The notes: generated by a model from the letters alone, not told the origin. Shown: positions 13,922 to 38,572, numbered from the stretch's first letter. The stretch is DNA of 45,808 bases from a virus (IMGVR_UViG_3300045988_088177:1-45808); one strand, 5' to 3'. Translations and numbers: made by a program.

Positions 13922-13996
13922 TGGAGGGCTGTACAGGATTTGAACCTGTGACCTACGGATTAACAGTCCGTTGCTCTACCGCTGAGCTAACAACCC
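13922..13996 (-). tRNA. tRNA-Asn (anticodon GTT), CCA encoded
   Basis: RNA is GGGTTGT-TA-GCTC-AGCGGTA-GAGC-A-ACGGA-CTGTTAA-TCCGT-AGGTC-ACAGG-TTCAAAT-CCTGT-ACAGCCC-T-CCA. It folds into a full cloverleaf of 75 nt. Confidence 0.9.
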
Positions 13997-14341: not shown

Positions 14342-14415
14342 TGGTTGCGGCAGAAAGAATCGAACTTCCATTACATGGGTCAAAACCATGTGCCTTACCT
14401 TTTGGCTATGCCGCA
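14342..14415 (-). tRNA. tRNA-Gln (anticodon TTG), CCA encoded
   Basis: RNA is TGCGGCA-TA-GCC-AAAAGGTAA-GGC-A-CATGG-TTTTGAC-CCATG-TAAT-GGAAG-TTCGATT-CTTTC-TGCCGCA-A-CCA. The U1-A72 pair and 3-bp D stem match bacterial tRNA-Gln. Confidence 0.9.
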
Positions 14416-14593: not shown

Positions 14594-16048
14594 TCAATCG
14601 CCCGAATTTCCTTGGTTGTCATTCGGATTGCCGATTTGGCTTCCGTTTCCATTGGCGTTCCCTCCGTTCTGTGCGGCCAGCTGCGCCGCTTTTTCTTCCT
14701 GCTCTTTCATGTAATCCATGCTCATGCGGTAAGCGAGCTGCGGGTCGCTGAACAATCCACAGTGGGTAAACGCCAATTCAGGGGCGATTTTCTCGCAAGC
14801 GAGCATCTGCGTTAGGACTGTTGCCTTTTGGGCAATGTTCTCGTAATTTCTACGGGTGAACCTAATTTCCAGAGCGGACAGCCGCAAGTTCAGATTGCCC
14901 ATGTCCCGGCAGATACGTAGCGTCAGCTTCAGGAACTCTTTTTCGGACTTCTTGAATACCGGTTCCGTGTCCTTCGCCCTGGCCTCCGCAGCAGACCAGC
15001 CGTCACGCATGATGACCGCCGTTCCAGTGTCAGATGTGGAGGTGCCGCCGTTCCGGTTTGGCATCCCGCAGATGGTCAACACGGTTTCATACATACTGTC
15101 CATCAGCGTCTGAGTCTGGGCCTGGTTCAGTTCGGAGTTCAGGTAGGATATCTCCGCTTTCATAGTAGCGTCAATGTCCTTGAACTTGATGCCGCCCAAC
15201 TCCTTCAATGCCTGGAACTTCTCTTCATCGATATCCACATTGTGAAACAGGATCAGGGACTGAATGAACTGCTCCACGCCGTCTACCCGGTTGCTCTCCG
15301 TCATGTTGATGGCATCCAGCAGCGGCACCACGATTTCAAAGGCCCCAAGCCTTGCCTGGTTCAGCGGGTATTCGATGATGGGAATGCCCAAAATCTGGTC
15401 TTCGCTGTGAATCACGTCCCAGGTGTTCCAGACCTCAAAATACCGGTCCTGCGTCCAGCAGGAGAACACAATGGTCTTGTCCTCCTTGATCACATACCGA
15501 ACCCCCATCATGGGCTTGTGCCCCAGCCCTACGGAGTACACCACAAAGGCATACCTTGGGTCAAGGGTGAAGATTTCAAAGGGGGCTTCGTCCTCCTCCA
15601 CATCCGCCATAGCGTCCGGCAGAACCATCCGATAGGCGGTGCCGCAAATGTGCATCCAGTCCGCCAGCTCTTTGTCCTGGGCCTGTTTGTCCTCGGAAAG
15701 CATGTAATCATTTAGCGTCAGCACCTCGGAAGCCGCCGCCTCGTCGTTACCCCGGCTCACATACTGGATGGGTTCGCCCACCAGATAGCCGGTCTTGAAG
15801 GAGACAATCTCGTTCGCCCGGTTCTCCACGATCATGTTGTTGATTTCCGGTCGGACTTCCTTCTTCCGCCCCAAAATCGGCTGGTCGCCCCGGTAGTACT
15901 TGTACAGGTAGTCAATTTCCGACTGATTTTGCAGGTGCGTAAACAGCGCCTTTTGCAGCACATCAATGATATTGCCCTCGTTGATTTCGGTCACTTCGGT
16001 ATAAATCACCCGCCGCCCGAATAACTTCCTGCTCGCCGTTTTCCGCAC
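14594..16048 (-). CDS. Portal protein (SPP1 gp6-like)
   Basis: 484 aa. N-terminal pattern (YLYKYYRGDQPILGRKKEVRPEINNMIVENRANEIVSFKTGY) is typical of SPP1-type portals. The exact start is uncertain because the GTG at 16048 abuts the G-run RBS. Confidence 0.9.
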   Translation of the reverse strand: MRKTASRKLFGRRVIYTEVTEINEGNIIDVLQKALFTHLQNQSEIDYLYKYYRGDQPILGRKKEVRPEINNMIVENRANEIVSFKTGYLVGEPIQYVSRGNDEAAASEVLTLNDYMLSEDKQAQDKELADWMHICGTAYRMVLPDAMADVEEDEAPFEIFTLDPRYAFVVYSVGLGHKPMMGVRYVIKEDKTIVFSCWTQDRYFEVWNTWDVIHSEDQILGIPIIEYPLNQARLGAFEIVVPLLDAINMTESNRVDGVEQFIQSLILFHNVDIDEEKFQALKELGGIKFKDIDATMKAEISYLNSELNQAQTQTLMDSMYETVLTICGMPNRNGGTSTSDTGTAVIMRDGWSAAEARAKDTEPVFKKSEKEFLKLTLRICRDMGNLNLRLSALEIRFTRRNYENIAQKATVLTQMLACEKIAPELAFTHCGLFSDPQLAYRMSMDYMKEQEEKAAQLAAQNGGNANGNGSQIGNPNDNQGNSGD

Positions 16049-16199: not shown

Positions 16200-16412
16200 T
16201 TATCCTTTTCCAAGGAGGCTTGCCATTTCCTCCATTTTGGAGGAAATGAGGGCAAGTACATTCGTATATTGATTCACTCGTTTGCTGTTGATAACCAGCC
16301 TGTCTTCTTCCGTGTCGCAGTCCGCACACATCATATCCGACAACATTTCAACGGTGGACTGTGCCATTTTGGCATCCAGCCACAGCTTGTTAGAGGTGTG
16401 AACGTCAATCAT
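16200..16412 (-). CDS. Hypothetical small protein (last gene of the antirepressor module)
   Basis: 70-aa ORF whose start overlaps the upstream stop (ATGA). No motif recognised. Confidence 0.55.
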   Translation of the reverse strand: MIDVHTSNKLWLDAKMAQSTVEMLSDMMCADCDTEEDRLVINSKRVNQYTNVLALISSKMEEMASLLGKG

Positions 16413-17182
16413 GCCTTTTCCCCCTCCCGCAGAAACTTATTCAGGAAGTAGGTCTGTCCTTTTCCTGTGACCTTTGGCGTTTTGCTCAAAGAGGTATGCC
16501 CGTCGCTGTGGCTTACAACTGTCTCCTTGACCCGGAACAGGCCAAGCTCCATGCTGACCTGGGTAGGCATATTGTAGTCTGTTCCTGCCCGCTTGATTAA
16601 GTACCCGTTGTCCCGCATCCACTGGAACAGCCGCTTTTCTCCCATGTCCACGCCGTTCTGCTTGAGAATCTTCGCAAGCTCTCCCACAAGGACGGTACTC
16701 TTGGAAGCGGCCACACTGTCCGCAAACAGAACTTTGGGTGCATCGGCCTGGACTTTGGATTCCAGGGCTTTCCGCTTGTCCGTTTCCTCTTTCAGAGCGG
16801 TTGCCACTTTCAGCAGATAATCCGGGTTCAGAATCGCCGCTTCCAGCGTTTCCGGGGTCATGTACGCTCCGTGCTTGCGGATGGAGGGGAGAACCTCAGA
16901 AGTGACCCACTTGCGGAACGGCTTGGCTTCTGGTTTGTCGGAGCGAAGAATGACAGTGTAAAGACCGCTTTCACTGATGATTGTCATATCCTGTGCGCCT
17001 CCAAGGGTGTCCACCTTGACCGACCCCCTTTCATCAGGGTCAAGCCGTTCTGCTGTATCTCTGTATTTTCTGATTCCCAGAACACTGCACACATCTTTCA
17101 GCACAAACCACGGTTCGCCGGATTTCTGTACGGTACGGACGGAGTTTTCGTTGTAGTTGAATACCTGTAAATTGTTTTCCAT
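16409..17182 (-). CDS. Antirepressor (Bro-N domain plus KilAC/ANT-type C-terminal domain)
   Basis: ATG at 17182 follows AAGGAGGA. The N-terminus (FNYNENSVRTVQKSGEPWFVLKDVCSVLG...FRKWVTSEVLPSIRKHGAY) is Bro-N-like. The C-terminus (LFADSVAASKSTVLVGELAKILKQNGVDMGEKRLFQWMRDNGYL) is KilAC-like. Confidence 0.85.
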   Translation of the reverse strand: MENNLQVFNYNENSVRTVQKSGEPWFVLKDVCSVLGIRKYRDTAERLDPDERGSVKVDTLGGAQDMTIISESGLYTVILRSDKPEAKPFRKWVTSEVLPSIRKHGAYMTPETLEAAILNPDYLLKVATALKEETDKRKALESKVQADAPKVLFADSVAASKSTVLVGELAKILKQNGVDMGEKRLFQWMRDNGYLIKRAGTDYNMPTQVSMELGLFRVKETVVSHSDGHTSLSKTPKVTGKGQTYFLNKFLREGEKA

Positions 17183-17294
17183 AATTTTCCTCCTTGATTT
17201 CTGCCCGGAGGAATGGTAAAATGTATATACCATCCCTCTGGGATTGGTTTTTGGGTGGAGTGTCCACAACTTCTTGGCGGGAGAGTGGGCACTC

Positions 17295-17543
17295 TTACTT
17301 CATTTCGGAATCACCGAACATCTGCTGCTGAATCTGTTCCAGCACGGTTCGTACCTGAACCAACTGCTCACGGCTGACTGCGTTTTCTGCCATGAACTCC
17401 TGCTTCCCGGAATTGCGGTCAAGGTCATCAGAAATCAGCTTCGTGATATAGCCCTTGTAGGTCAAGTCCAGGTTTGCAATCCGTCTGCGGACAAACTTAT
17501 ACAGCTTTTCGTCCACCCGAACGGAAATGGTCTTATCTGCCAT
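17295..17543 (-). CDS. Ribbon-helix-helix DNA-binding protein (Arc/CopG-like)
   Basis: The N-terminus MADKTISVRVDEKLYKFVRRRI is a typical RHH beta-strand plus helix. It is the first gene of the antirepressor operon. Confidence 0.7.
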   Translation of the reverse strand: MADKTISVRVDEKLYKFVRRRIANLDLTYKGYITKLISDDLDRNSGKQEFMAENAVSREQLVQVRTVLEQIQQQMFGDSEMK

Positions 17544-17566
17544 TTTCTTTCCTCCTTTCTGCCACT

Positions 17567-17595
17567 ATTTTATCAAAAAAGACCGCTTTTGTAAA
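17567..17595 (-). promoter_or_regulatory. Sigma-70-type promoter of the RHH-antirepressor operon
   Basis: On the minus strand: TTTACA (17595..17590), a 17-nt spacer, then TAAAAT (17572..17567). The -35 lies inside the 23-nt element shared with the portal promoter. Confidence 0.65.
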
Positions 17596-17697
17596 GTAAA
17601 TTTAAGTTCACGATTCACCGCCCTTTGCAAGCCAGAAGAAACGATTGAGATATTACCGTTTCTTCTGGCTTTTCCGTGTTTTGCAGGAGTCCAATGT

Positions 17698-17880
17698 TCA
17701 GGATTCCTGCTTTTCTTTTTCCAGAAGAAGATGAACACCACGCCTGATTGCTTCCGTTCGTGTGATTCCATGGACTTCACAATAGGCAATAAGACGCTCG
17801 TGCATTTCCTTATCGAACCGCACTTTTACGTCAACATCTTTTGGGTTATCTGCTTTTGGCCTTCCTGTTCTCGGAGACAT
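17698..17880 (-). CDS. Ribbon-helix-helix protein (CopG/Mnt-like)
   Basis: 60 aa. RTGRPKADNPKDVDVKVRFDKEMHERLIAYCEVHGITRTEAIRRGV has the classic CopG-type RHH layout. GAGGTGA RBS. Confidence 0.75.
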   Translation of the reverse strand: MSPRTGRPKADNPKDVDVKVRFDKEMHERLIAYCEVHGITRTEAIRRGVHLLLEKEKQES

Positions 17881-17951: not shown

Positions 17952-19604
17952 TTAGAACGGCCTTGCAAAAACCTCCACGCTGCCCCCATTCAGCGATTGG
18001 GCGTACTCAGCGAACATCGCCATGCCGTCCGGAACATCGTCGTGCTTATTTTTGCCAGCCACCGTGTAGGAACAGAGCATATCCATCATGCGCCCGTAGT
18101 CCGTGTTCCGCTTGTATTTGCTTTCGTCCAGGAACAGGCAGTGTTCCTTCACCCACGCCGAATTGACGATGATTTTGGTCTCCTTGTTGGCCGTGGTGAA
18201 TTTGGTGGTAATGTTGGTCACACCGCCCAGACGCTTGACCTCGCCCTGTATCTTCTCCGCCACCCTGCGCCCGGCGGAGTTACTTTCAAACCGGCAAGCC
18301 TTTACCTTGTCCCGCACCAGAATATCCGTTAGCCGGGCATCCACCGTGTCCGGAAGGCCGTTGTCGCACACGCAGTCCGCAATGTAGTAATCCTGTCCGT
18401 ACACATACCCAACCGGGAGAAAAGCGTAGTCATTGCCCTTGTCCTTGGTATCGCACACGCCGATGATGGCATCCGGTTCCTCCCGGGGCAGCTCAAAAAA
18501 CCGTCTCAACTCATCCGGGTGGTAAACAAGGCCCTCCCGTTCAATGGGCTGGTTCATATACAGCGCTTTCCAGCTGATGCTGTCCATAATGTCCCGCTGC
18601 TCCCGGTAGAACTTGGTGGAGAAGCCCACACCGTACTGGTAATCAAAATTACTCTCGTCGTTCTCATTCATGGCAGGAATACGGATGAACTTCGCCCGGT
18701 CGTTCTTCTCATACTCCCGTTCCAGCCGTCCGATCACATCATGGACGCTCCACCGGGTGGCAATGTGCAGCTCCTTACAGTGGTCTCCGATTTTACGCTG
18801 CCTCAAGTCCGTGGTGTAGGTCTCCCACAGCTTATCCAGCCGTTCTTTGGACAGGGCCACTTCGATGCCGGAAACCAGGTCATCGCAGTAGAGCAGGGTA
18901 GCTGCCCGGTACAGACCGGCGTTGCCCGTGCCGATGGAGGTAAATTCCAGTGTCTCAAACCGCTGCCTCTTGTCAAAATCAATGCGGCAGTCCTTGGCGT
19001 TGGTCCCGGACACGGCGATTCCCGGGAATACATCGTGCCACAGGTATTCCCCTTGTGGGTCAACCAGCCGCAGCACTTCGTCGTAGCACCCCCGGATAAA
19101 GGCGTTGGAGTGACTGCCCGTCAAGATGGGACTGTTCGGCTCTCGCCCCGCCAGAAACGCCAGAAAGAACAGCGCCAGGGTCGTCTTTCCGGAACCAGGG
19201 GGCAAACTCACCGCCAGCAAGTCCAGCTTGTCGTCCACGCACAGCGCTTGCAGATCGTCCACCACGGTTTTCAGTACCTTCCGCCTGGGCTGGTAAAACC
19301 GCTTCTTCGCCTCCCGGTTCAGCTCCATGTATTGCAAGAAGCTGTCAAAATCATGTGGCGCCTCAAACAGCAAACTCAGCCGCCATTGCTCATGAAATGC
19401 CGACATCGTCAAAATATCAGTTCCATTCCGATTCATTTCCGTGTTGCACATATCCCGCAGCCGCTTATTCATCCTATGTGCCGCCTGGAAGTCCGTCTCC
19501 GCCCAAGACTGACACAGGCCGAATAAATCCATGTAAGCCTCAACATCCGTCCTGCGCCGCTCTATGGCCCCCAGAATGGAAGCAGATACCTTTTCGTAGT
19601 CCAT
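17952..19604 (-). CDS. terL: Terminase large subunit
   Basis: 550 aa with Walker A SLPPGSGKTT. Size and position upstream of portal are typical. Confidence 0.9.
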   Translation of the reverse strand: MDYEKVSASILGAIERRRTDVEAYMDLFGLCQSWAETDFQAAHRMNKRLRDMCNTEMNRNGTDILTMSAFHEQWRLSLLFEAPHDFDSFLQYMELNREAKKRFYQPRRKVLKTVVDDLQALCVDDKLDLLAVSLPPGSGKTTLALFFLAFLAGREPNSPILTGSHSNAFIRGCYDEVLRLVDPQGEYLWHDVFPGIAVSGTNAKDCRIDFDKRQRFETLEFTSIGTGNAGLYRAATLLYCDDLVSGIEVALSKERLDKLWETYTTDLRQRKIGDHCKELHIATRWSVHDVIGRLEREYEKNDRAKFIRIPAMNENDESNFDYQYGVGFSTKFYREQRDIMDSISWKALYMNQPIEREGLVYHPDELRRFFELPREEPDAIIGVCDTKDKGNDYAFLPVGYVYGQDYYIADCVCDNGLPDTVDARLTDILVRDKVKACRFESNSAGRRVAEKIQGEVKRLGGVTNITTKFTTANKETKIIVNSAWVKEHCLFLDESKYKRNTDYGRMMDMLCSYTVAGKNKHDDVPDGMAMFAEYAQSLNGGSVEVFARPF

Positions 19605-19613
19605 GTCGTCACC

Positions 19614-19985
19614 TCACAGAGCGTCTGCTTGCTCAAATGCTTTCAGCAGTTTGGGGAACTGAATTGCAATCCAGTCCACCATTTCCTCATTCTTTGCCCA
19701 TGCGGAATCAGGGGTGAAACTGTTCCATTGCAGCCCGCTTTCGTTCAGAAAAGCGTGTACGATTTCGTGCCGCAGCGTGGTTCGCTGTAGATGCTCTATC
19801 CTTTCTTCTGGCTCATTCTCCCATTCCTCATGCGTTTTGAGCAGGAGAACATAAATTTCGTGGCTATTAGCGGAGCAATACCCCCCGTAGTGCATCTTGT
19901 CCATGTATTCATCCTGCCCGGCTTCTACAAAACGGACGGTGTACTCCGTACCCAGAACCGAAATCTTTTTTGCCCTTGTATCCAT
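19614..19985 (-). CDS. Small HExxH zinc-metallopeptidase-like protein
   Basis: 123 aa with LRHEIVHAFLNESG (HExxH motif). GGAGGG RBS. It is the first gene after the 20032..20076 terminator. Confidence 0.6.
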   Translation of the reverse strand: MDTRAKKISVLGTEYTVRFVEAGQDEYMDKMHYGGYCSANSHEIYVLLLKTHEEWENEPEERIEHLQRTTLRHEIVHAFLNESGLQWNSFTPDSAWAKNEEMVDWIAIQFPKLLKAFEQADAL

Positions 19986-20006
19986 AATACCCTCCTTGTG
20001 TCAGAC

Positions 20007-20030
20007 CATTTTCGTGAAGCCACGAAAATG
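20007..20030 (-). promoter_or_regulatory. Conserved palindrome/hairpin, copy 1 (CATTTTCGTG-N4-CACGAAAATG)
   Basis: Perfect 10-bp arms with a 4-nt loop, 21 nt upstream of the 19985 start. A near-identical copy lies at 31874..31897. Confidence 0.7.
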
Positions 20031-20031
20031 A

Positions 20032-20076
20032 TAAAAAAGAAGGGCTACCCGTGCGTTTCCACACGAATAGCCCTTC
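20032..20076 (-). terminator. Intrinsic terminator ending the leftward accessory operon
   Basis: Minus RNA is GAAGGGCUA...UAGCCCUUC followed by UUUUUUA. Both arms and flanks are shared with the 14420..14466 terminator. Confidence 0.8.
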
Positions 20077-20106
20077 GGCTGTCAGCGCTGCCCTTGCAGC
20101 GCCCTC

Positions 20107-20403
20107 TTATTCTTCCAACTCATCCTCGTCACCCGGTCGAGTGGTCCACTCTTTTAGGATTTCGATTGCCTCGTCAGGCATATTCGGCAAATCTCTTAAC
20201 TGCTCAAAATCACGATATGCTTCGGTCTTGATTCTTTTTAGCTGTGCAATCTCTTTATCTTTCAGATAAGTATTGCTTCTGTCAAGAATCCGTTTTTCCT
20301 CGTCGGATAAGCTTCCAATATCGACACCAAGCCCCAACATATATACTGGCTGCGTATCGTCAATCATTGTACATTCCAAAAGGTGAGGGCAATAATCATC
20401 CAT
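20107..20403 (-). CDS. Hypothetical acidic protein
   Basis: 98-aa ORF with an AAGGAGGA RBS. Confidence 0.55.
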   Translation of the reverse strand: MDDYCPHLLECTMIDDTQPVYMLGLGVDIGSLSDEEKRILDRSNTYLKDKEIAQLKRIKTEAYRDFEQLRDLPNMPDEAIEILKEWTTRPGDEDELEE

Positions 20404-20463
20404 TCAAATCCTCCTTTCAAATGTAGCCCTTCTGCTTGCCTACCGCCCTTGCGGTAGGCTTAT

Positions 20464-21015
20464 TTAATCCCAAATATGCTCGTCGCAATACGCCGACCAT
20501 TCGGATTCCATTTCTTCCAGAACGGCATCACAGTCCTCACCGTTTATAATCCGTTCAAGCGCTTTCTTTCCAGCAGATGCTTTCGCATAATTTGCAGCAC
20601 GGCTGTATGCCTCCGCTTTCAGATATGCGCTTGCTCTCGGATACTTTCTGTACAGTTCCTCGAAATCGTACTGCGGCTTCGGACGAACACCCATGCCTCC
20701 TACATCCTTGAAACTTTCCTCAAACTCATACTGCCAGTTCTCCAAGTCTGTCTTTGCAGCCTGAATTTCTTTCAGGCCAGGGATAGCGTTGATTTTTGCC
20801 TCTCGTTCCTCCGCTGCCAGCTGCTCTTCTTCAAACTCTCGAAGCAGAGTAGCCTTGATTTCCTCTTTTGCGGAAACAATCTTTTCCCAATCACCATTCT
20901 CTCTTGCAAGCAAACCGTCAGCAATATAAAGCTTACCGGTGGGGGTGCGCTTTCCGCCCCTGTACTCAACATCCAGCCTGATTCTGTATCGGTTTATCAG
21001 CTCATTCGGCGCCAT
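20464..21015 (-). CDS. Hypothetical protein
   Basis: ATG at 21015 follows GAGGAGG. The track start at 21030 is a GTG inside that RBS. 183 aa, helical and charged. Confidence 0.6.
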   Translation of the reverse strand: MAPNELINRYRIRLDVEYRGGKRTPTGKLYIADGLLARENGDWEKIVSAKEEIKATLLREFEEEQLAAEEREAKINAIPGLKEIQAAKTDLENWQYEFEESFKDVGGMGVRPKPQYDFEELYRKYPRASAYLKAEAYSRAANYAKASAGKKALERIINGEDCDAVLEEMESEWSAYCDEHIWD

Positions 21016-21016
21016 G

Positions 21017-21364
21017 TCAATCCTCCTCACTTACTTTTTCGGCATCTGCGCACGCCAGTTTCTTCTCCCGGCACTTCCGGATTCTTTGTGCATTCACCGT
21101 CTGGCTTGGAGTTATCATAATGCCACGCTCATAGGGCGTGTTGATGTTCACCCAGGTTGTAGAAATTCCCAATTGTTCTGCGATCTCGTTCTGTGGAACT
21201 CCGGCTTCTATAAGCTCCGCAACCGTCTGCGTGAGCGGCGTTTCAAGCAGCCCATGGGAAATCAGGCACTTTCGGACAACACCATGGGAAACATCCAGCC
21301 TCCGGGCCGTTTCTTTGATGCTGTTCCATTTTTGGTATTCTGCAACGACATCTTCTGTTGTCAT
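21017..21364 (-). CDS. Double helix-turn-helix DNA-binding protein
   Basis: 115 aa with two HTH-like segments (IKETARRLDVSHGVVRKCL and VPQNEIAEQLGISTTWVNI). Confidence 0.6.
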   Translation of the reverse strand: MTTEDVVAEYQKWNSIKETARRLDVSHGVVRKCLISHGLLETPLTQTVAELIEAGVPQNEIAEQLGISTTWVNINTPYERGIMITPSQTVNAQRIRKCREKKLACADAEKVSEED

Positions 21365-21441
21365 GTTGAGCCTCCTATTTGTGGCGTATAAGTTCTGCCA
21401 GAACCATGATAGGGAAGACCAGAATTAAAAACAGCTCCATG

Positions 21442-22008
21442 TTAGGCCTCCGGTTCGCCAATTTTTGTGTCAATCCCGTTTCTTGTGAATGATATTTGAA
21501 TGCCCATTTTCTTGCCGGTGGAGACATCTACTGCTATGCTCCCGTGTCTGTTTTCCTTTCCTAGGCCAGACTTCTGCTGGTAATACACAGTATGGATTCC
21601 ATCTGGCAGATTGAATCTAGCAGACCCGCCGTTTGCAATATCCACTTGCGGTTTATCATCCACTTTCACAGAAAGAAGAACCGCGCTTCCTGTTTTGCAC
21701 GGTTTTCGAGTAATACGTAGATTATACTCAGATTCCTCATCCGGCCTTGTAGCAGTCTTACAGTTCTCAACAGTCCCAGAGTACCCGCAGTCTTGGCAGG
21801 TCAAAACGCTCTGATATGCCTGCGGGATGACGGCCTTCACGATTGCAGAGACAATCAGCCCAAGAAGAGCGCCTGCAATAGCTCCGGCAATTCCTAGAAA
21901 CATCGTTCCGAACCCGATAAATACGAGCAATATCGGGCCGGTAAGCTTTGGCTTGTATTCTCTTGATTGAATTTGAACATTCTCAGACCCGCATTTTGGG
22001 CATTTCAT
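21442..22008 (-). CDS. Zinc-ribbon membrane protein
   Basis: ATG at 22008 follows GAAGGAG. Has MKCPKCGSENV...CQDCGYSG (two CxxC pairs flanking two predicted TM segments) and a beta-rich C-terminal domain. Confidence 0.65.
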   Translation of the reverse strand: MKCPKCGSENVQIQSREYKPKLTGPILLVFIGFGTMFLGIAGAIAGALLGLIVSAIVKAVIPQAYQSVLTCQDCGYSGTVENCKTATRPDEESEYNLRITRKPCKTGSAVLLSVKVDDKPQVDIANGGSARFNLPDGIHTVYYQQKSGLGKENRHGSIAVDVSTGKKMGIQISFTRNGIDTKIGEPEA

Positions 22009-22028
22009 AGCTGTCACTCCTTCAAATT

Positions 22029-22787
22029 TTATGTTTCCAGAATTGGTTCGTGCTGGCCCTTGACCCATTCGCCGTCCTCGCCGTATCTGTATTCACCACG
22101 GTATGTCCGCTCGTTGTTCCAGATACTCTGCACTGTGGAGATTACAAATGGTTTTCCACGCCGTGTATGATACCCAGCCTCATTCAGGGCTTTGACAGTT
22201 CCAAGCATCGTGTCACCAGCGAATTTATGCTTGAATATGAAACGCACAACCTCCGCTTCTGGTTCATTGATAACAAGATGCTTATCTACGACCTTGTAGC
22301 CCATAGGAGCCTGCCCGCCAGCGTAGCCACCGGCTTTTGCTTTCTGCTTTCTTCCTCCGGTCATGCGGGAGCGGATATTCTCACGCTCAATCTGAGCGAC
22401 CATTGCCATAAAGTTCTCCAAAATCATGGCAGTCAGCTTGTCCTGCGCTGACCAATCCTCTTTGACGCTGAGAATTTCCAGCCCCAGTTCGTTCAGCCGC
22501 ATCTTAAATCCGTAGTAAAGGCAAATGTCACGGGAAAGCCGGTCCGCTCTGGCCACCACAACGTAATCCGTCGGAGGGTTTGTCACTTCTCCGCTCAAAA
22601 TCTTGTCGAGAGCCGGACGGCGTACTTTGGCACCGCTGACAGCTTCGTCGATATACCAGTTTACGACTTCTATGTCGTGCGCCTCACAGTATTCTTTAAT
22701 GTCAGACCGTTGCGCTTCAATGCCATAAGCATCTTCGCCAGTTTGCCCTTTTGTGGACACTCTCAGGTAAGCAACAGCACGTTTCAT
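22029..22787 (-). CDS. Short serine recombinase: resolvase catalytic domain plus recombinase domain, lacking the zinc-ribbon and coiled-coil
   Basis: MKRAVAYLRVSTKGQ...ARADRLSRD catalytic motifs. It ends right after ...WVKGQHEPILET, where large serine recombinases continue. ATG at 22787 follows GAGGTGA. The ATG at 22805 abuts the -10 box. Confidence 0.8.
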   Translation of the reverse strand: MKRAVAYLRVSTKGQTGEDAYGIEAQRSDIKEYCEAHDIEVVNWYIDEAVSGAKVRRPALDKILSGEVTNPPTDYVVVARADRLSRDICLYYGFKMRLNELGLEILSVKEDWSAQDKLTAMILENFMAMVAQIERENIRSRMTGGRKQKAKAGGYAGGQAPMGYKVVDKHLVINEPEAEVVRFIFKHKFAGDTMLGTVKALNEAGYHTRRGKPFVISTVQSIWNNERTYRGEYRYGEDGEWVKGQHEPILET

Positions 22788-22805
22788 ACTTATCACCTCG
22801 CCCAT

Positions 22806-22834
22806 AATATATCACAATTACGTCTATATGTCAA
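22806..22834 (-). promoter_or_regulatory. Consensus promoter of the recombinase operon with operator in the spacer
   Basis: On the minus strand: TTGACA (22834..22829), a 17-nt spacer containing TAGACGTAATTGT, then TATATT (22811..22806). Confidence 0.75.
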
Positions 22835-23080
22835 TACGTAAATGTAAATAATCCTTTTTTATTTTTCCGGGATTTTTTGAAAAGTAGGTGAGGGGAGGCG
22901 TTTTTATTCCTGCGGATACTTACGGCACTAACCCCGCCGGAACGCCCAGGCCTATATCCCCCGCCCCCGGCCCTGCCAACATGGCGCACGGCTGGAGGCC
23001 TGGGAGGGCCGCCGCCGGAAACGTGGGACGGTCCGGAATTGGGAAAATAAAAATAGTTACGTCTAATTAAAAATAAACTA

Positions 23081-23109
23081 TTGACAATTACGTCTAATCG
23101 TTGTATAAT
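23081..23109 (+). promoter_or_regulatory. Perfect consensus promoter of the plus-strand operon with operator in the spacer
   Basis: TTGACA, spacer attacgtctaatcgttg (17 nt), then TATAAT. The motif ACAATTACGTCTA (23084-23096) also occurs at 22814-22826, and TTACGTCTA at 23057-23065. Confidence 0.8.
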
Positions 23110-23221
23110 GTCAACGTAAACAAAAAAGCGCCCCGGCAGCCGTAGGAAGCCCGGGACGCACCACACAAGGAGGCCCCTACATTGTAGCACGGCCCCCGGA
23201 AGAATGCAAGGAGGAAATACC

Positions 23222-23422
23222 ATGGAACAGAAAGTAAAACAGATCGTGAAGAAATGGGGCGGCTACAGGGAACTGGACGTAATGAGCAAGCCGCACACCC
23301 TGACAAAGGGAACGTGGAACAGTGAGCACAAGGTTATCTACGTAACGGAAAAAGCAGTCCAGGAAGACGGGTACAGCAACGGATTCGCTGTGGACCTCGT
23401 CACCGGCTCTATTTGCGGATAA
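23222..23422 (+). CDS. Hypothetical small protein
   Basis: 66 aa, with ATG after AAGGAGGA. Confidence 0.6.
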   Translation: MEQKVKQIVKKWGGYRELDVMSKPHTLTKGTWNSEHKVIYVTEKAVQEDGYSNGFAVDLVTGSICG

Positions 23423-23440
23423 TGTAAGGGGGATTCGAAA

Positions 23441-24160
23441 ATGGAAAAATATGTTGATATTCTGGCCGCTATTGCCGACACCCGGGCCGCTATGGTAGAC
23501 CCCGAAAAGAGCGAGAAAGAATTTGCTAGAAATGCGGTAAAAATCGCTTACAAGACCGGCACGGATGCCGAACTAGCCGCAGCAGAGGCCGCCTATAAGG
23601 CCGCAGAAGAAAAATACGTTGCTGATTGCAAACATAACGAGGGCTTAAAAATAGCCCTTGAAATCCTTAAAGATAACGCAGCCAACGCCTTTTTTGCGGA
23701 GTCCATCGGCACTATTTGCACCATCTGGAATAAATACGCCGGGAAGCCGCACGGCGAAAAGACCGCTGAAAAAATCCGGAAGGAACTTTTCGAGGCCCTG
23801 GGCGTTAGGGTGTATATCACAAACAAGTATGATGATGCTTGTATAACTTGCTATGATTTGGGCCGAAATGCCCCGTTTCGGCAGCTGGAATTTTACGCAA
23901 GCCGCAAAGCTGGCGTAAACGTCCCGGCCCTTGTTGGCAACAAAGTGCAGGCATTAAACCCCGATTGTTTCCGGCTGTATTGCTGTGGCGGCTACGTCGA
24001 CGACGTGCCCGCCCAGGTGGAGGCGATCAGGGCGGCCCACGAAAAGGCCAGAGAAGCAGAAGCGGCTTTTTCCGCTGCCGTATCCGCTTATAACAACCTA
24101 ACCCGCGGGAATATCGTCAGAGCGTCCACCCGTGAGGGCGTGAAAAGCTGGCTTATTTGA
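23441..24160 (+). CDS. Hypothetical protein (Ala-rich helical N- and C-termini)
   Basis: 239-aa ORF with a GGGGGA RBS. No motif recognised. Confidence 0.65.
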   Translation: MEKYVDILAAIADTRAAMVDPEKSEKEFARNAVKIAYKTGTDAELAAAEAAYKAAEEKYVADCKHNEGLKIALEILKDNAANAFFAESIGTICTIWNKYAGKPHGEKTAEKIRKELFEALGVRVYITNKYDDACITCYDLGRNAPFRQLEFYASRKAGVNVPALVGNKVQALNPDCFRLYCCGGYVDDVPAQVEAIRAAHEKAREAEAAFSAAVSAYNNLTRGNIVRASTREGVKSWLI

Positions 24161-24174
24161 TGGGGGTGCAACCA

Positions 24175-24441
24175 ATGGACATCAACGCAACAATGGCCGA
24201 ACTGGCCCAATATATCCGGATGCAGGAGGAGGCCTCCGCAATGGTGGAGGCCCTGAAAGACCAGCTAAAAACCTATATGCAGGCCGCCGGGGTTGATACC
24301 CTGGCGGGTGCCGAACACAAGGCCGCATATAAGGCCGTAACGTCTAACCGCATCGACACGGCGGCCCTAAAGCGGGACTTGCCGGAGGTTGCCCAGCAGT
24401 ACACCAGGGCCACGGAAACCCGCCGGTTTACGTTTGCATAG
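24175..24441 (+). CDS. Hypothetical protein (coiled-coil N-terminus, C-terminal ...TSNRIDTAALKRDLPEVAQQYTRATETRRFTF)
   Basis: ATG at 24175 follows GGGGGTG. The track start at 24157 is a TTG overlapping the upstream stop. Confidence 0.6.
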   Translation: MDINATMAELAQYIRMQEEASAMVEALKDQLKTYMQAAGVDTLAGAEHKAAYKAVTSNRIDTAALKRDLPEVAQQYTRATETRRFTFA

Positions 24442-24453
24442 GGGGGCGGTGCA

Positions 24454-24528
24454 GTGGTCAACCTCCATTTCTGGGCGCTCCTTCTGGCCGTCCTGGCCGC
24501 CATTTTCACCCCGTCTGGTGCTATGTAG
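24454..24528 (+). CDS. Micro-ORF, hydrophobic 24-aa peptide (MVNLHFWALLLAVLAAIFTPSGAM)
   Basis: GTG start 7 nt after TAGGGGGG. Below the track cutoff and read manually. Confidence 0.35.
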   Translation: MVNLHFWALLLAVLAAIFTPSGAM

Positions 24529-24540
24529 GGGGGTGATACC

Positions 24541-24606
24541 GTGATATTAGCAATCATCCTCTTCCCGTTTTTTGTCCTGGTGGAAATCCTCAAAAACTGT
24601 AAATAA
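24541..24606 (+). CDS. Micro-ORF, hydrophobic 21-aa peptide (MILAIILFPFFVLVEILKNCK)
   Basis: GTG start after TAGGGGGGTGA, the same initiation architecture as 24454. Confidence 0.35.
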   Translation: MILAIILFPFFVLVEILKNCK

Positions 24607-24728
24607 TTCTGTTATAGGCCCCGGAAACGGGGCCGGAAAGGTTGAAACTATGGAAAAAGCCAATAAATACGCCGTTAACAGCTGGCCGCCCTGCGATCTG
24701 CGCAGCTGCTCCCCGTTTCCATCAGCTC

Positions 24729-24757
24729 CCCGCCCATCGTGGCGGGATTTCTTTTGC
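24729..24757 (+). terminator. Intrinsic terminator of the plus-strand operon
   Basis: CCCGCC-catcgt-GGCGGG followed by ATTTCTTTTG. Confidence 0.6.
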
Positions 24758-25107
24758 CTATTCCGTGTGGCGGCTCTGGTGGCGTTTTAAGCGGTTTATT
24801 TTTCTGTGGTATCATTTGCCGTTTTCCTATATAATCGGCTTGTATGAGATTTCTAGTGCCGTCACGGAATAGGCGGCGCATAATTACGCTATTACAAGGG
24901 CGGCACAAGTCCTATACAGGCCGTTTTCATGGCGTGGTAAGCTGGCACCATACCCGGGATTTTGTGCAGCCCTGCACCGTCTGGGCGGCTCCCAGGGGGC
25001 AGGGTTCAACCGTGGTGGTCATTCCCAGCCCCGGAAACCCGCCGATTTTTCTTCGGAAATCTGAAAGATTTTTGTCAGGGAATTTTTTCTCGGATTTTTC
25101 GCCGGTC

Positions 25108-25158
25108 ATAGTCGATAGTCGATAGCCATTTTTCGAAAATCATAGTCGTTCATAGTTG
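25108..25158. repeat. ATAGTCG repeat cluster
   Basis: ATAGTCG at 25108, 25115 and 25142 (and at 25199 inside the HNH 3' end). Variants are ATAGCCA at 25122 and ATAGTTG at 25152. Confidence 0.7.
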
Positions 25159-25159
25159 A

Positions 25160-25191
25160 AAGAAAATCCCACCGGCAAAAAGTCGGTGGGA
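25160..25191 (-). terminator. Intrinsic terminator after the HNH gene
   Basis: Minus RNA is UCCCACCG-ACUUUUUGC-CGGUGGGA followed by UUUUCUU. Confidence 0.75.
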
Positions 25192-25196
25192 TAATT

Positions 25197-25781
25197 CTAT
25201 AGTCGTTCTAGTTCTGCTTCCAACTCCATGATTTGCTTTCTGATAACATAACGCTTCCTATCTCTGACATAGTCGGAGAACATTTCGCAAGCCGGTTCCC
25301 ATTTGTAACCGCCAGCCGTTGATGCCGTCCCCTCGCAACATCTGGAAATGCAAATTGGGGTTACGCCAACGCTCTTTGCAGCAAGTGACTGGTTCGCCCA
25401 GATTGCCACGATTTCCCCAGACATGGTCGTTTGACATACAGGCTTTGTAGAAAAGTCGATGCCAAGTTCTTCTCTTGCGTGGCGGTTGTTATAGCCCTTT
25501 GTGCACCATTCCAAGTTTTCCAGAGAGTTGTTCAGTTTGTTCCCATCAATGTGATTCACACACTCATAGTCGTTCGGGTTCGGAATGAAAGTCAATGCCA
25601 AAAGTCGGTGAAGCTTGCAATCTTTCTTGCATCCATCTTTCGTCAGCGAAACAACCTTGTACCCGTGTGAGTTCACATTGCCGTGCATGACAGCTCCCGT
25701 TTTCTTGTTCCATACGCACCCGTTTTCGGATATCACATAGCTACCCTCATACCCTGGAATGTCACAAACCATCATATCCAT
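25197..25781 (-). CDS. HNH homing-type endonuclease (NUMOD4-like N-terminus plus HNH)
   Basis: IPGYEGSYVISENGCVWN (NUMOD4-like) and CVNHIDGNKLNNSLENLEW (HNH). Adjacent to terS. Confidence 0.85.
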   Translation of the reverse strand: MDMMVCDIPGYEGSYVISENGCVWNKKTGAVMHGNVNSHGYKVVSLTKDGCKKDCKLHRLLALTFIPNPNDYECVNHIDGNKLNNSLENLEWCTKGYNNRHAREELGIDFSTKPVCQTTMSGEIVAIWANQSLAAKSVGVTPICISRCCEGTASTAGGYKWEPACEMFSDYVRDRKRYVIRKQIMELEAELERL

Positions 25782-25784
25782 GCC

Positions 25785-26354
25785 TTATTTTGCCTCCTCC
25801 GCATCAATAATCTTGTCCGCATCAGCCCCGTACACATCTTCCAGATACTTCCGCCGCAGCTCCTCCGGGTCTTTGGATTCACCCAGGGGATTTTCAGGCC
25901 GCAGAACCACCTCCTGCTGGTCTGTGTAGTTCATATTGTTTTTCATCAGAAAAATTCCGGCAACGGGGTTAATCTTGCCATTTTGCATAAAATCTTCCAT
26001 CTGAGCGTTGATTAAATCCCTCGCTTTTTTGATGGTGTCACGAATAGAGTCGCTTAATTTCCTACTTTCTGGGTGATTATTGCACCATCTCCACATAGTC
26101 ATCCTGTCCACACCGAACGCCAAAGCGAACCCGGCAAAAGTCGGTTTCATATCGTTCTGAGCGCAAAGGTTAAAATAGTCGTAGCACCGTTCCTGTACAG
26201 CCTCCAAGCTATTCATATCCGGTGTTTTCCATTTCATGATCGTCATGGAATGGTTGATATACTTGGTATTGTCACCCGGCTCTAACTCAGGCAACTGATA
26301 CGGTTTCTTCTTCGGCTTATCCTCTTTCTTCGTGGCAATTTTCTTCTCTGCCAA
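25785..26354 (-). CDS. terS: Terminase small subunit (Terminase_2-like)
   Basis: TTG start after AAGGAGG. KPTFAGFALAFGVDRMTMWRW...INPVAGIFLMKNNMNYTDQQEV matches the conserved pattern of this TerS family. Confidence 0.8.
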   Translation of the reverse strand: MAEKKIATKKEDKPKKKPYQLPELEPGDNTKYINHSMTIMKWKTPDMNSLEAVQERCYDYFNLCAQNDMKPTFAGFALAFGVDRMTMWRWCNNHPESRKLSDSIRDTIKKARDLINAQMEDFMQNGKINPVAGIFLMKNNMNYTDQQEVVLRPENPLGESKDPEELRRKYLEDVYGADADKIIDAEEAK

Positions 26355-36455: not shown

Positions 36456-36606
36456 TCTGCATTACCTCCTTTTTGGTGATTCGTTTCCCATTCAGCCGGA
36501 TTGTGTGGCCGGAATTGAGAAGCGACAATTCCGTTTTCGCGTCATACCGAAAATCCATAGCAGACTGCATCAGCAGCGTTCCGTCCTGTCCGTGTACTGT
36601 GTACAT
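36415..36606 (-). CDS. Hypothetical small protein (3' end overlaps the ssb start by 41 nt)
   Basis: 63-aa ORF. Confidence 0.4.
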   Translation of the reverse strand: MYTVHGQDGTLLMQSAMDFRYDAKTELSLLNSGHTIRLNGKRITKKEVMQNAECNLHHGKSRP

Positions 36607-37421
36607 CAGGCGTTCTCCGGGGTTTCTGGTTCAATGACCTCACCGGTGTTGGAATCCACCTCGATATACTCCGTAACATCCGGGATTTCGGACATATCGG
36701 CGGCGAGTTCCGTCTTGGTGGTTCCGTCCTGGGAGACTCCACGGACAAAATCGGATTTCAGGGGAGCGTATTTCAGCACCTTTTTCAGCACGGTTTTCTT
36801 CGCCATTTCGTCAAAATTGGTCTGCCACGGGCCGTTTCCGTAGCTCTTGCTGAACTTCCGGGCGTGTTCCGTCACGTCTTCCATGCTCATGACCTGGAAG
36901 CCGTAGCCGTCGTCCTTGGTTTTGAACATGGCATAGTAGGCAATGGGCTTGCCCCGGTTGCTCTTGGCGGGAACGTGCCGCAGCTTCGGGTCAATGCCAA
37001 GCTCATACTGGAATTCGTCGTTCTCGTAGACTGTGTGTGCTTGGACGATGGACACTTCACCGGAACGGTAGGCCAGGTCAATGAGGCCTTTGTAGCCCAA
37101 CTGGAACTGACATTCCAGCCGCCCATGGTTCTTGAAGGGAATCAAGTAGGCTTGTCCAAGGGGAGTGTTGGGTTCCAAGCCCAGCTGTGCGGCGGTCATC
37201 ATGGCTCCCAAGAAGGACTGCGGTGTGCATTCTTTGAGCTTCGGGTTGGCGCTCAGAGCAGACAGGGTAATGCGGCTGAACCGCTCCGGGGTCATAACGC
37301 TGGGTAGCGCCGCCTTGATAGCAGGGGCCATCACAGTGATGTAGTCCTGAATAGACTGAGGGGCTTTCTTCTTGGCAACTGCTTGGGTAGAGGCAGCGGC
37401 GTTTTGAATCATGTTTTCCAT
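36606..37421 (-). CDS. recT: RecT-family single-strand annealing protein
   Basis: ...SFLGAMMTAAQLGLEPNTPLGQAYLIPF...GYKGLIDLA... is the typical RecT core. Confidence 0.85.
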   Translation of the reverse strand: MENMIQNAAASTQAVAKKKAPQSIQDYITVMAPAIKAALPSVMTPERFSRITLSALSANPKLKECTPQSFLGAMMTAAQLGLEPNTPLGQAYLIPFKNHGRLECQFQLGYKGLIDLAYRSGEVSIVQAHTVYENDEFQYELGIDPKLRHVPAKSNRGKPIAYYAMFKTKDDGYGFQVMSMEDVTEHARKFSKSYGNGPWQTNFDEMAKKTVLKKVLKYAPLKSDFVRGVSQDGTTKTELAADMSEIPDVTEYIEVDSNTGEVIEPETPENA

Positions 37422-38360
37422 TTACACGTTCTCCTTTTTGAATCGGAAAGTCCTGCTTTCCGAAGTTTTCAAATATTCCTCTGGGATATTCCTGTGGTCT
37501 TTCTCCCACCGTTTCCGGTCGAAGGTCTGCCGCTTGCCGCTCTTCCAGCTCACGGAGTAACCGGCGTAGCCGCCACGTTCGGCGGTGCCCATAGCTTCCA
37601 TGATTCGTGCCTGGGCGGCGGCTTTCTTCACCTCCAGGGTCTTGATTTGCTGTCCGCATTCGTCCAATATCGCCAGATCGGCGGCGCAGCCCGTCAGGTC
37701 AATTTCCGTGTCCGGCTCGCTTACCGGGAACACGGCGTTGACCGCATCAATGGTGGAATCCATGCCGTCGATTTCCGGTGGCAAGTCTTTTTGCACCATG
37801 TCCCAGAAATTTTCCTCCGCCATTTTCAGGGCGGCGATCTCGTTCTCGTCCCGCTCAATGGTGAACACATAGAATCCGATGCCCAGGACCAGAACCGCCA
37901 GATACCAGCGGTCGAGGCCGGAGACCATCAGATAGTGAACGCACTGGCAGTAGTAGGTTGCCGGGAACTCGCCGTTCTTGAACTTCGTCAGGTTCAGGGC
38001 ATTGGTGGTCTTGATTTCAAGCCCCGCCCGTTCGCCGATCACAAGCCGGTCATAATTTGCGTGTGCGTAGGGCATATCGTCCCGGAAGACGGTGTAGTTC
38101 TCCCGGCGGACCTTCTTGCCGGTGGCCTCCATAAACCTGCGTGCCACATAGTCCTCAAGGTCTGTGCCAAGCCGTACCGCCTCTTTCCCGGAAATGTCCT
38201 CCGGGACGACCTTACCGGTTTTCTCCGCCCACAGGGCGTATGGGGACTTGTGTGGGTTCAGCCCCAGAATAGCGGCGGCATCCGACCCACCGATGGTGGA
38301 GGAGCGGAGCTTCGTCCACTCTTCCTTGCTCATATTGGAGGTAGGAATTTTTCTCAGCAT
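37422..38360 (-). CDS. YqaJ-like (lambda Exo-type, PD-(D/E)xK) recombination exonuclease
   Basis: ...IGGSDAAAILGLNPHKSPYALW...GLEIKTT... motifs. ATG at 38360 is coupled (ATGA). Confidence 0.8.
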   Translation of the reverse strand: MLRKIPTSNMSKEEWTKLRSSTIGGSDAAAILGLNPHKSPYALWAEKTGKVVPEDISGKEAVRLGTDLEDYVARRFMEATGKKVRRENYTVFRDDMPYAHANYDRLVIGERAGLEIKTTNALNLTKFKNGEFPATYYCQCVHYLMVSGLDRWYLAVLVLGIGFYVFTIERDENEIAALKMAEENFWDMVQKDLPPEIDGMDSTIDAVNAVFPVSEPDTEIDLTGCAADLAILDECGQQIKTLEVKKAAAQARIMEAMGTAERGGYAGYSVSWKSGKRQTFDRKRWEKDHRNIPEEYLKTSESRTFRFKKENV

Positions 38361-38572
38361 CACTCCACCTCCGCAGCCTCGTTGAATTCCTCCATCGCCT
38401 CAATGCAGCTCAGGTGATAGAATTCATCGTGCTTCGCAATGTAAATGAGCTTGGAATCCGTGATAGGGGAGCAGCAGTGGGCGCATACCGGGAACCGAGA
38501 GAGGTAGTTGTCCCAGTCGGATTCTCTGGCATCTGCCTGCCTCCACGGCTCATAGCATTCCGGGATGTTCAT
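38360..38572 (-). CDS. Hypothetical Cys-containing protein
   Basis: 70-aa ORF. Confidence 0.5.
   Translation of the reverse strand: MNIPECYEPWRQADARESDWDNYLSRFPVCAHCCSPITDSKLIYIAKHDEFYHLSCIEAMEEFNEAAEVE

Follow-up and report, generated by a model that had tools for sequence, protein, structure and literature searches.

The 45,808-nucleotide viral stretch IMGVR_UViG_3300045988_088177:1-45808, referred to here at its full length as the window, is a siphophage genome with nearly all of its genes on the minus strand. Between the genes for its small and large terminase subunits, terS and terL, lies an island of two divergent operons (19986-25196). Here, we propose that the island is a variable-cargo locus in which a short serine recombinase, encoded by the first leftward gene, binds half-sites at both promoters and represses both operons, while the other genes are independent passengers. 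Judged from sequence comparison, we hold this proposal to have a somewhat better than even chance of being correct. The recurring part of the locus is a scaffold of about 430 bp that consists of two back-to-back consensus sigma-A promoters, a 118-bp conserved block and a leader of about 95 nt. The relatives used for comparison, designated by L-numbers, come from a terL search of IMG/VR that returned 80 loci at 59-99% identity, with about 20 kb of each relative covered. Spurious antisense clusters that arose from greedy longest-open-reading-frame calling (c8-c11, c15 and c85) were excluded.

Architecture of the control region

The elements of the scaffold are as follows.

23081-23109, plus strand: promoter P_R, TTGACA-17-TATAAT (-35 at 23081-86, -10 at 23104-09), 12/12 matches to consensus
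22834-22806, minus strand: promoter P_L, TTGACA-17-TATATT with an extended TG (-35 at 22834-22829, -10 at 22811-22806), 11/12 matches to consensus
23053-23121, plus strand: half-sites of the P_R region, TTACGT (23057-62), TTACGT (23088-93) and ACGTAA (23114-19)
22806-22843, minus strand: half-sites of the P_L region, an inverted pair flanking the -35, ACGT centres 16 bp apart
22853-22970, no strand assigned: block 1, conserved non-coding DNA between the promoters, 118 bp, 68-84% identical in about 30 loci
23116-23221, plus strand: leader of the rightward operon, about 95 nt, 69-94% identical in about 45 loci

A prior examination of this DNA from its letters alone (the sequence-only reading) had reported divergent sigma-70 promoters with a shared TTACGTCTA motif, and both are present at the positions it gave. 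Within the 10.5 kb that were scanned, P_R and P_L rank first or joint first by match to consensus; the two further 11/12 sites are outside the island. The same reading had placed the promoters in a 415-bp intergenic region. They do lie between the operons, but the distance from the likely true recombinase start (ATG at 22787) to the start of p66, the first rightward gene (23222), is about 434 bp.

The candidate operators are concentrated at the two promoters. Specifically, TTACGTCTA occurs in both promoter spacers, with a third copy at 23053-23065, 31 bp upstream of the P_R copy, and hits of this type with at most one mismatch number 6 versus 1.09 expected. The pattern TTACGT-N(6-22)-ACGTAA is found exactly twice in 45.8 kb, both times at the promoters, against an expectation of 0.01. 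At P_R, the inverted pair extends from the spacer to the start site with ACGT centres 24 bp apart. Half-site centres separated by 16 bp at one promoter and 24 bp at the other fit the variable-length subsites of serine recombinases, such as those of res. The res subsites are 28, 34 and 25 bp long. A pattern scan for the P_R site matched only the contig of L029 and the window's own near-twin.

A recombinase gene adjoining two pseudo-palindromic sites that cut both core promoters could also specify an invertible switch, and invertible promoter switches are common in gut bacteria. In that case, the recombinase would flip the P_L-P_R segment of about 270 bp, uncouple each -35 from its -10 and so toggle both operons. 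However, the orientation of block 1 relative to the leader and the recombinase gene is identical in all of the roughly 30 loci that carry block 1, the half-site spacing of the two sites differs by 8 bp, and the 13-mer shared by the two promoters is in direct, not inverted, orientation. We give inversion next to no credence, and the single orientation and unequal spacing likewise set the locus apart from the Hin/Gin invertible switches.

Candidate roles for block 1 are those of UP element, late promoter, activator site and pac. Its core (…CTAACCCC…ATATCCCCCGCCCCC…, with a duplicated A/T tract by the P_L -35) is recognisable in prophages from metagenome-assembled genomes (MAGs) whose terL is 34-44% identical. 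The block formed by P_R and the leader, including the ribosome-binding site (23078-23219), is shared by about 45 loci, and across the family the leader stands ahead of at least 10 unrelated first genes. The P1 hairpin at the 5' end of the leader is conserved, with its internal mismatch kept and one covarying pair. The leader also contains AAGGAGG twice and a CCUCC with which either copy could pair; it may act in translation or in transcript stability. Apart from the P1 hairpin, which alone is supported, structured RNA was rejected for the leader and for block 1 (z -0.46, +1.07 and +0.04, no Rfam match). Also rejected was an inverted repeat around the rightward operon (23174-23189/24516-24531), whose 16 nt at 81% complementarity equal dozens of chance pairs.

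A family of short serine recombinases

22029-22787, minus strand: short serine recombinase, 252 aa (258-aa open reading frame), Resolvase (1.2e-30) plus Recombinase (6.3e-10), first leftward gene

The short recombinase matches CcrB model positions 5-245 of 542 (2e-38), the phrog_95 integrase family (3.8e-68) and the TP901-1 catalytic domain (8.8e-12). Its C-terminal half is the PF07508 'Recombinase' domain, and it has no Zn_ribbon_recom/PF13408 domain and no C-terminal helix-turn-helix (HTH). The protein ends at a HEPIL motif, which we take to mark the point at which the recombinase domain of large serine enzymes normally gives way to the zinc-ribbon domain. At least 748 homologues exist; the best 120 are nearly all about 250-300 aa long (one has 348 aa) and combine Resolvase and Recombinase domains with no zinc ribbon. 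Y6, R8, S10, Q14, R45, R68, R71, E118 and R125 are invariant in 26 distinct alleles, the reference for catalytic residues being the gamma-delta resolvase sequence. By homology, the short recombinase is a coherent, uncharacterised family and not a pseudogene. A recent origin as a truncated copy of the phage's own integrase was considered and rejected, the short recombinase being only 26% identical to that 584-aa protein.

A serine recombinase, lying a short way upstream of terL, is present in 41/59 loci and is the commonest gene of the locus. Some relatives carry classical HTH forms of 190-199 aa, and others carry forms of about 250 aa. The recombinase is found, too, in 4 MAG prophages (terL 34-44% identical), a few hundred bases upstream of terL, and in 7/7 further contexts that were inspected.

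Recombinases and operators change together

Different recombinases are accompanied by different half-sites at the promoters.

G1 recombinase (window, L029 at 72%, L095 at 74%): half-sites TTACGT(CTAAT)
G2 recombinase (L002, L007, L031 and others): half-sites TTACGG / CCGTAA
G3 recombinase (L003, L012, L051 and others): half-sites TTACA / TGTAA
L096 recombinase (63% allele): half-sites TTGTGCGGATAAT
L091 recombinase (a further allele): half-sites GTGCCTATAAT

The architecture of the sites is constant across the groups: one half-site lies about 31 bp upstream, one follows the P_R -35, an inverted one follows the P_R -10 and, on the P_L side, an inverted pair surrounds the -35. Mantel tests on 14 distinct genomes show that recombinase identity correlates with promoter/operator identity at both P_L (r 0.95) and P_R (r 0.94), with p = 2e-4; with the leader, which abuts P_R, the correlation is only r 0.25. 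P_R is parted from the recombinase gene by block 1, which is less allele-specific. The window and its near-twin L002 (terL 96%, terS 93% and p187 96% identical) differ exactly in the recombinase (46%) and in two operator patches.

Another leftward product, a double-HTH protein, is an alternative candidate for the operator regulator. L029 and L095 carry the same TTACGTCTAAT sites as the window and recombinases 72-74% identical to its own, and neither has the double-HTH gene; thus, the double-HTH protein is not the general regulator. In L091, the recombinase is the sole leftward gene. The operators are probably controlled by the recombinase rather than by the HTH protein.

We propose the short recombinase as the autoregulator of both operons because the layout is that of Tn3/gamma-delta res. 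In Tn3, res holds both divergent promoters, and TnpR autoregulates both (PMC7157771). In the window, recombinase dimers would occupy the inverted TTACGT/ACGTAA half-sites, lying across the -35 at P_L and over the spacer and start site at P_R, where a further half-site is present 31 bp upstream. Binding would repress both operons, as Tn3/gamma-delta resolvase does at res. If so, entry of the DNA into a recombinase-free cell would elicit a burst of expression, after which expression would settle at a low, self-limited level. Through the consensus promoters and the terminators, each side would be a cassette complete in itself and insulated.

A regulator encoded elsewhere, either the main repressor of the phage or a host factor, could act on the same operators, with the recombinase as a selfish or relic neighbour. 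With about 20 kb compared per relative, linkage of the operators to a distant repressor allele is conceivable; loci with no recombinase of this type share the CGTAAAC of the P_R start site; and selfish elements, in the form of HNH genes, accumulate at the locus. The evidence on the other side is that the two operator patches change with the recombinase while block 1 and the leader do not, that the window and L002 are nearly identical except in exactly these components, and that purifying selection has acted on catalytic residues and length across the at least 748 homologues. We regard a distant regulator as quite improbable.

Several observations weigh against control by the recombinase. The link between regulator and operator rests on co-variation among genomes that are related and hence non-independent, and P_L adjoins the recombinase gene, so the P_L correlation could be mere linkage. 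L093 has a recombinase 86% identical to that of the window, but in its P_L half-sites CA/TG stands in place of the window's CG; thus, specificity appears looser than a strict code. L094 (76% recombinase) is only a partial fit. The catalytic residues are all invariant, which a pure repressor would not need and which implies a role in recombination. In the distant L054 and L058, the recombinase lies within a co-directional operon that has no such promoter ahead of it. Moreover, 18/59 loci have no recombinase, and in several of these a small HTH protein heads the leftward operon. Finally, we know of no demonstration of specific DNA binding by a recombinase that has only the 'Recombinase' domain.

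Alongside these exceptions, we note that a protein of about 78 aa with an HTH (MQI[SN]KAIR…) is first in the leftward operon of the recombinase-less L004, L005, L010, L013, L016, L023, L056 and L062, and that L013 and L062 have a CCAAAT…ATTTGG palindrome at both promoters. This arrangement suggests that DNA-binding proteins of unrelated kinds can take the regulator's place.

Possible recombination at the candidate sites

The invariant catalytic residues raise the possibility that the sites act chiefly as substrates for recombination, in the manner of res or lox, and that promoter repression is a side effect. Such sites could serve multimer resolution, Cre-lox-like cyclisation of terminally redundant genomes after injection, or recombination between co-infecting phages. 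In keeping with these roles, the residues are unchanged in 26 distinct alleles, and one serine recombinase type or another (190-199 aa with an HTH, or about 250 aa) occupies the slot family-wide. The locus adjoins terS, and the P22 gp3-like terS together with the SPP1-type portal suggests headful packaging. The P_L site, with its 16-bp centres, is about 28 bp long and resembles a crossover site. Recombination at res is likewise known to swap passenger modules between Tn3-family transposons (PMC7157771). However, the rest of the window contains no second copy of the site, and cargo breaks fall within the leader and not at site centres. RecT and a RecE-like exonuclease are already available to the phage for circularisation, and it possesses a separate large serine integrase. 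We consider a mainly recombinational function unlikely, although still worth serious weight, and it is compatible with control of both operons by the recombinase.

Cargo and its exchange

The terS-terL gap measures 2.8-7.8 kb in 58/58 IMG/VR relatives that have both genes, and 2.65 kb in Clostridium phage Maintenon, a distant isolate whose terL is 42% identical. Because the gap is present in all of these relatives and in Maintenon, it is ancestral and only its content varies. The picture of an island splitting terS from terL, offered by the sequence-only reading, is corrected by this check of the flanks in relatives: throughout the family, terS and terL stand at least 2.8 kb apart with the same regulatory scaffold between them, and the split is the family's ancestral state.

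The description of the region as accessory holds. Content varies among otherwise collinear phages, and most passengers are found in 0-4 relatives: p183 in 0, the double-HTH gene in 1, the zinc-ribbon membrane protein gene in 1, p239 in 3 and p98 clearly in 3. Tiling of the island against the relatives shows that its most widely shared DNA is non-coding rather than genic. In L002, the rightward operon is that of the window (98-100%), and the recombinase (46%), the operators and the leftward cargo are different. L003 shares p98 and the membrane protein gene (95% identical), and its recombinase is 36% identical. Since the eight genes assort independently among relatives, they are passengers and not one coherent system.

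These comparisons bear on the proposal, made at the outset from the DNA itself, of a self-regulated module expressed in lysogeny. In its fullest form, the eight genes would constitute a single defence or anti-defence system whose operators are bound by the double-HTH protein. Strong host-type promoters, shared operators and insulation by terminators are consistent with that proposal. In Pfam, PHROGs, NCBIfam and PADLOC, none of the island products matches a packaging or structural family; the folds predicted with confidence for p239 and p183 have no counterpart in the PDB; and Mrr-like, Lar, AcrIC5 and HicB/Panacea proteins are encoded at the locus in relatives. However, the genes do not co-occur, the leftward genes of L002 being entirely different and L003 sharing only the membrane protein gene and p98. 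The double-HTH protein is missing from genomes with identical operators, and the only match of PADLOC-DB 2.0 over the island proteins is to an HNH protein ('HEase'). A single defence system is in our judgement very doubtful, whereas individual passengers may be defence genes.

The breakpoints between cargo sets lie inside the leader. L012 matches L015 as far as GCGCCCCCG, beyond which the two diverge; the window and L002 become identical rightwards from AAACAAAAAAGCGCC. Therefore, homologous recombination at conserved linkers exchanges the cargo, and the aligned breakpoints show that exchange between phages occurs mostly in this manner, within the leader and the flanks, which are conserved. 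Cargo at the same locus in relatives includes Mrr_cat/NA-iREase1, Lar, AcrIC5, HicB with Panacea, and Bro-N; an FtsK/SpoIIIE-like ATPase is recurrent, and ten rightward cargo proteins of relatives have no Pfam match. The cargo of relatives thus includes recognisable genes of restriction, anti-restriction, anti-CRISPR and toxin-antitoxin type. Plausibly, the locus is a place of exchange for genes of defence and counter-defence; that the genes of the window have such a role is a guess. The carriers are apparently temperate, uncultured siphophages of gut Clostridia. Among MAGs, related loci carry the labels Faecousia, Oscillibacter, Eubacteriales and Clostridia.

Passenger genes of the window

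Leftward passengers follow the recombinase gene, in this order.

21442-22008, minus strand: zinc-ribbon/two-transmembrane membrane protein, 188 aa; weak zinc-ribbon matches, phrog_890 'lipoprotein' over the C-terminal part
21017-21364, minus strand: double-HTH protein, 115 aa; HTH_23 (8.8e-6) and a NUMOD1-like N-terminal HTH
20464-21015, minus strand: p183; 124 homologues, some with PF07410 Phage_Gp111; in 0/80 IMG/VR relatives
20107-20403, minus strand: p98; no family match; 86-91% identical in L001-L003

Two hydrophobic helices of the membrane protein lie between CxxC pairs, and a similar N-terminal module occurs in cluster c25. Among the IMG/VR relatives, the double-HTH protein is found in L028 only (59%).

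The rightward operon contains the following genes.

23222-23422, plus strand: p66 (open reading frame from 23204), first rightward gene; no family match
23441-24160, plus strand: p239; at least 250 homologues, none with a Pfam family
24175-24441, plus strand: p88 (open reading frame from 24157); phrog_6244 (5e-11), and phrog_434 positions 271-360
24454-24528, plus strand: hydrophobic micro-ORF 1, 24 aa; conserved in L003 (ATG start, AGGAGG ribosome-binding site), with mostly synonymous changes
24541-24606, plus strand: hydrophobic micro-ORF 2, 21 aa, MILAIILFPFFVLVEILKNCK; 8 synonymous changes and 1 non-synonymous change relative to L002

In L018 and L027, the p66 sequence makes up the C-terminal end of a protein of 179 aa, and p239 and a p66-like gene recur together at this locus in other phages. 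No function was obtained for p66, p239, p183 or p98 from PADLOC, Pfam, NCBIfam or PHROGs. AlphaFold2 models of p239 and p183 reach predicted local distance difference test (pLDDT) scores of 85.6 and 92.2, respectively. Neither model has a significant PDB fold match, and in BFVD the p239 model significantly matches two uncharacterised phage proteins only. Comparison of p88 with residues 231-308 of the phage exonuclease (37422-38363) gives 24% identity (E 8e-5); by this homology, p88 is a stand-alone relative of the C-terminal ~85 residues of the RecE-like enzyme. It is present in 18 relatives, on either strand, and could be a decoy or modulator of RecE/RecT-type recombination. The substitution pattern of micro-ORF 2 reflects clear purifying selection, and this micro-ORF very probably encodes a real small membrane peptide.

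Terminators, the HNH gene and the right end

25160-25191, minus strand: intrinsic terminator at the end of the terS-HNH transcript; -18.4 kcal/mol, z -5.15 (25150-25200), followed by a U-run
20039-20076, minus strand: strong intrinsic terminator at the end of the leftward operon; stem of 17 bp, -31.1 kcal/mol, z -6.75 (20030-20085)
24729-24746, plus strand: weaker terminator of the rightward operon; hairpin of -12.6 kcal/mol, z -2.1
25197-25781, minus strand: free-standing HNH homing endonuclease, 194 aa; HNH_3 and NUMOD4, phrog_59 (1.4e-43), PADLOC HEase (6.4e-28)
24760-25159, no strand assigned: non-coding spacer with ATAGTCG-type short repeats; no credible open reading frame, no Rfam match
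24651-24790, plus strand: remnant of a deleted cargo gene, whose first 9 codons, MEKANKYAV, match a 94-aa gene of L003

Both terminators that had been named as the bounds of the island exist. The one at 25160-25191, however, lies on the minus strand and closes the terS-HNH transcript rather than the rightward operon. Likewise, the right end had been described as about 400 bp of non-coding DNA. It is a spacer in which we find no credible open reading frame, about 82% conserved in L002, L005, L006, L018 and L019, but the region also includes the gene remnant: relative to L003, where the 94-aa gene (MEKVNKYAV…) is intact, about 307 bp are deleted in the window. Four or five copies of a (C)ATAGTCG short repeat occupy 25100-25215, downstream of the HNH stop codon and overlapping it. 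One possibility is a homing-site or protein-binding repeat.

The HNH protein had been considered the partner of terS. It is at this position in 1/59 family members, where it forms a singleton cluster, a 72-aa zinc-ribbon gene fills the same slot in relatives, and in combining NUMOD4 with HNH_3 it has the architecture of homing endonucleases. By these features, it is a lone homing endonuclease, itself an insertion, and not a packaging partner. HNH-terminase partnerships of the HK97 gp74 type differ in that the HNH gene is conserved beside the terminase genes across the family. Distinct HNH homing endonucleases have landed independently in the terS-terL interval, one in the window (25197-25781) and others in L007, L009, L016 and L056 (cluster c34).

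Genome setting

The coordinates of terS and terL, and the gene list between them, are as first given.

25785-26354, minus strand: terS, small terminase; Pfam GP3_package (4.8e-12); right-hand conserved flank, with a homologue in 58 related loci
17952-19604, minus strand: terL, large terminase; TIGR01630 (2.9e-14)
19614-19985, minus strand: p123, HExxH protein; phrog_1233 (3.4e-21); left-hand conserved flank

In most relatives, p123 is found beside terL at 44-94% identity. As judged from this arrangement, it travels with terL and is conserved flank, not cargo. The SPP1-type portal gene (14594-16048) follows terL. Elsewhere, the genome encodes a large serine integrase of 584 aa (41407-43161), in which the zinc-ribbon domain (PF13408) is present, and a RecE-like exonuclease (37422-38363) with an adjoining RecT (36606-37421). 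A near-identity DNA search against GenBank phages and plasmids gave no match, and the nearest isolated phage has a terL of <45% identity.

No recognisable promoter was found at 19986-20038, between the 20039-20076 terminator and p123/terL. For this reason, late transcription of the packaging and structural genes probably proceeds via antitermination or from a promoter type that is not recognised. The interval between terL and the portal gene (16409-17880) is a second accessory patch, whose products are a Bro-N/KilAC antirepressor and two small proteins of 60 and 82 aa; most relatives do not have the patch, and in them the portal gene directly follows terL. Two tRNA genes on the minus strand, Asn-GTT (13922-13996) and Gln-TTG (14342-14415), lie just downstream of the portal gene. 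At gathering threshold, Rfam returned only two tRNAs, located outside the island, and 22700-25300 had no match at E up to 1. Contig ends were examined as a clue to pac or cos and discarded: several contigs stop about 119 nt short of the terS match, but these ends fall in an AT-rich tract and one has a Nextera adapter, which makes them an assembly artefact.

Comparison with known systems

The closest parallels concern Tn3 and gamma-delta. There, as in the window, the serine recombinase gene is divergent from its neighbours and both promoters lie in the intergenic region. Inverted-repeat sites with unequal half-site spacing, which are candidates here, overlap the promoters, and passengers sit beside the site (PMC7157771). 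Autoregulation of both transcripts and a burst in a naive cell, predicted for the window, also have their counterparts there (PMC7157771). The catalytic pocket of the short recombinase is intact (S10, R8, R68, R71 and others). The differences are that no DDE transposase is among the island products and no long inverted repeats flank the island, that the protein has a 'Recombinase' domain of the large-serine-recombinase type where the resolvases have a C-terminal HTH, that the candidate sites spread over about 300 bp around the 118-bp block whereas res is a compact 120 bp, and that the module lies in a phage packaging region.

The large serine recombinases TP901-1, A118, Bxb1 and CcrB have homologous catalytic and 'Recombinase' domains with conserved catalytic residues. 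In contrast to these enzymes, the short recombinase does not have the zinc ribbon and coiled-coil motif that control att recognition and directionality, and no attP site adjoins it. Prophage morons and hotspots resemble the locus in their variable content among collinear phages, in their own promoter and terminator (predicted here) and in cargo that comprises membrane proteins plus, in relatives, defence and anti-defence domains. They differ from it in that a conserved scaffold of bidirectional promoters, leader and swappable regulator is here reused for many cargo sets. With P1 Cre-lox near pac, there is only an analogy: a recombinase and a candidate site close to packaging genes in a probable headful phage, but with a serine enzyme in place of a tyrosine enzyme. 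The locus is thus probably best viewed, from its gene content and site layout, as a moron hotspot combined with resolvase/res-type autoregulation around uncharacterised short serine recombinases.

Implications

We speculate, as a rather improbable extension, that short recombinases of this kind are both the master regulator and the recombination enzyme of a phage passenger-gene platform, with promoter-embedded sites of about 28-36 bp at which they would set cargo expression on both sides. If so, site-specific exchange at these sites, between co-infecting or resident relatives or between terminally redundant genome ends, would reshuffle the early and late genome halves together with the cargo, or would cyclise the genome. 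If active, serine recombinases of about 250 aa with short candidate sites could be of interest to genome engineers; were this borne out, the short recombinase would be an unusually compact serine recombinase with a simple site.

For the phages themselves, the locus is a defined place in which to seek new defence and counter-defence genes of uncultured gut-Clostridia phages, and p239 and p183, confident folds with no PDB fold match, are candidates for testing. If the recombinase is the regulator, the locus would be a phage counterpart of the Tn3 TnpR/res logic, with one enzyme gating a bidirectional expression platform that gut phages reuse for one set of unknown genes after another.

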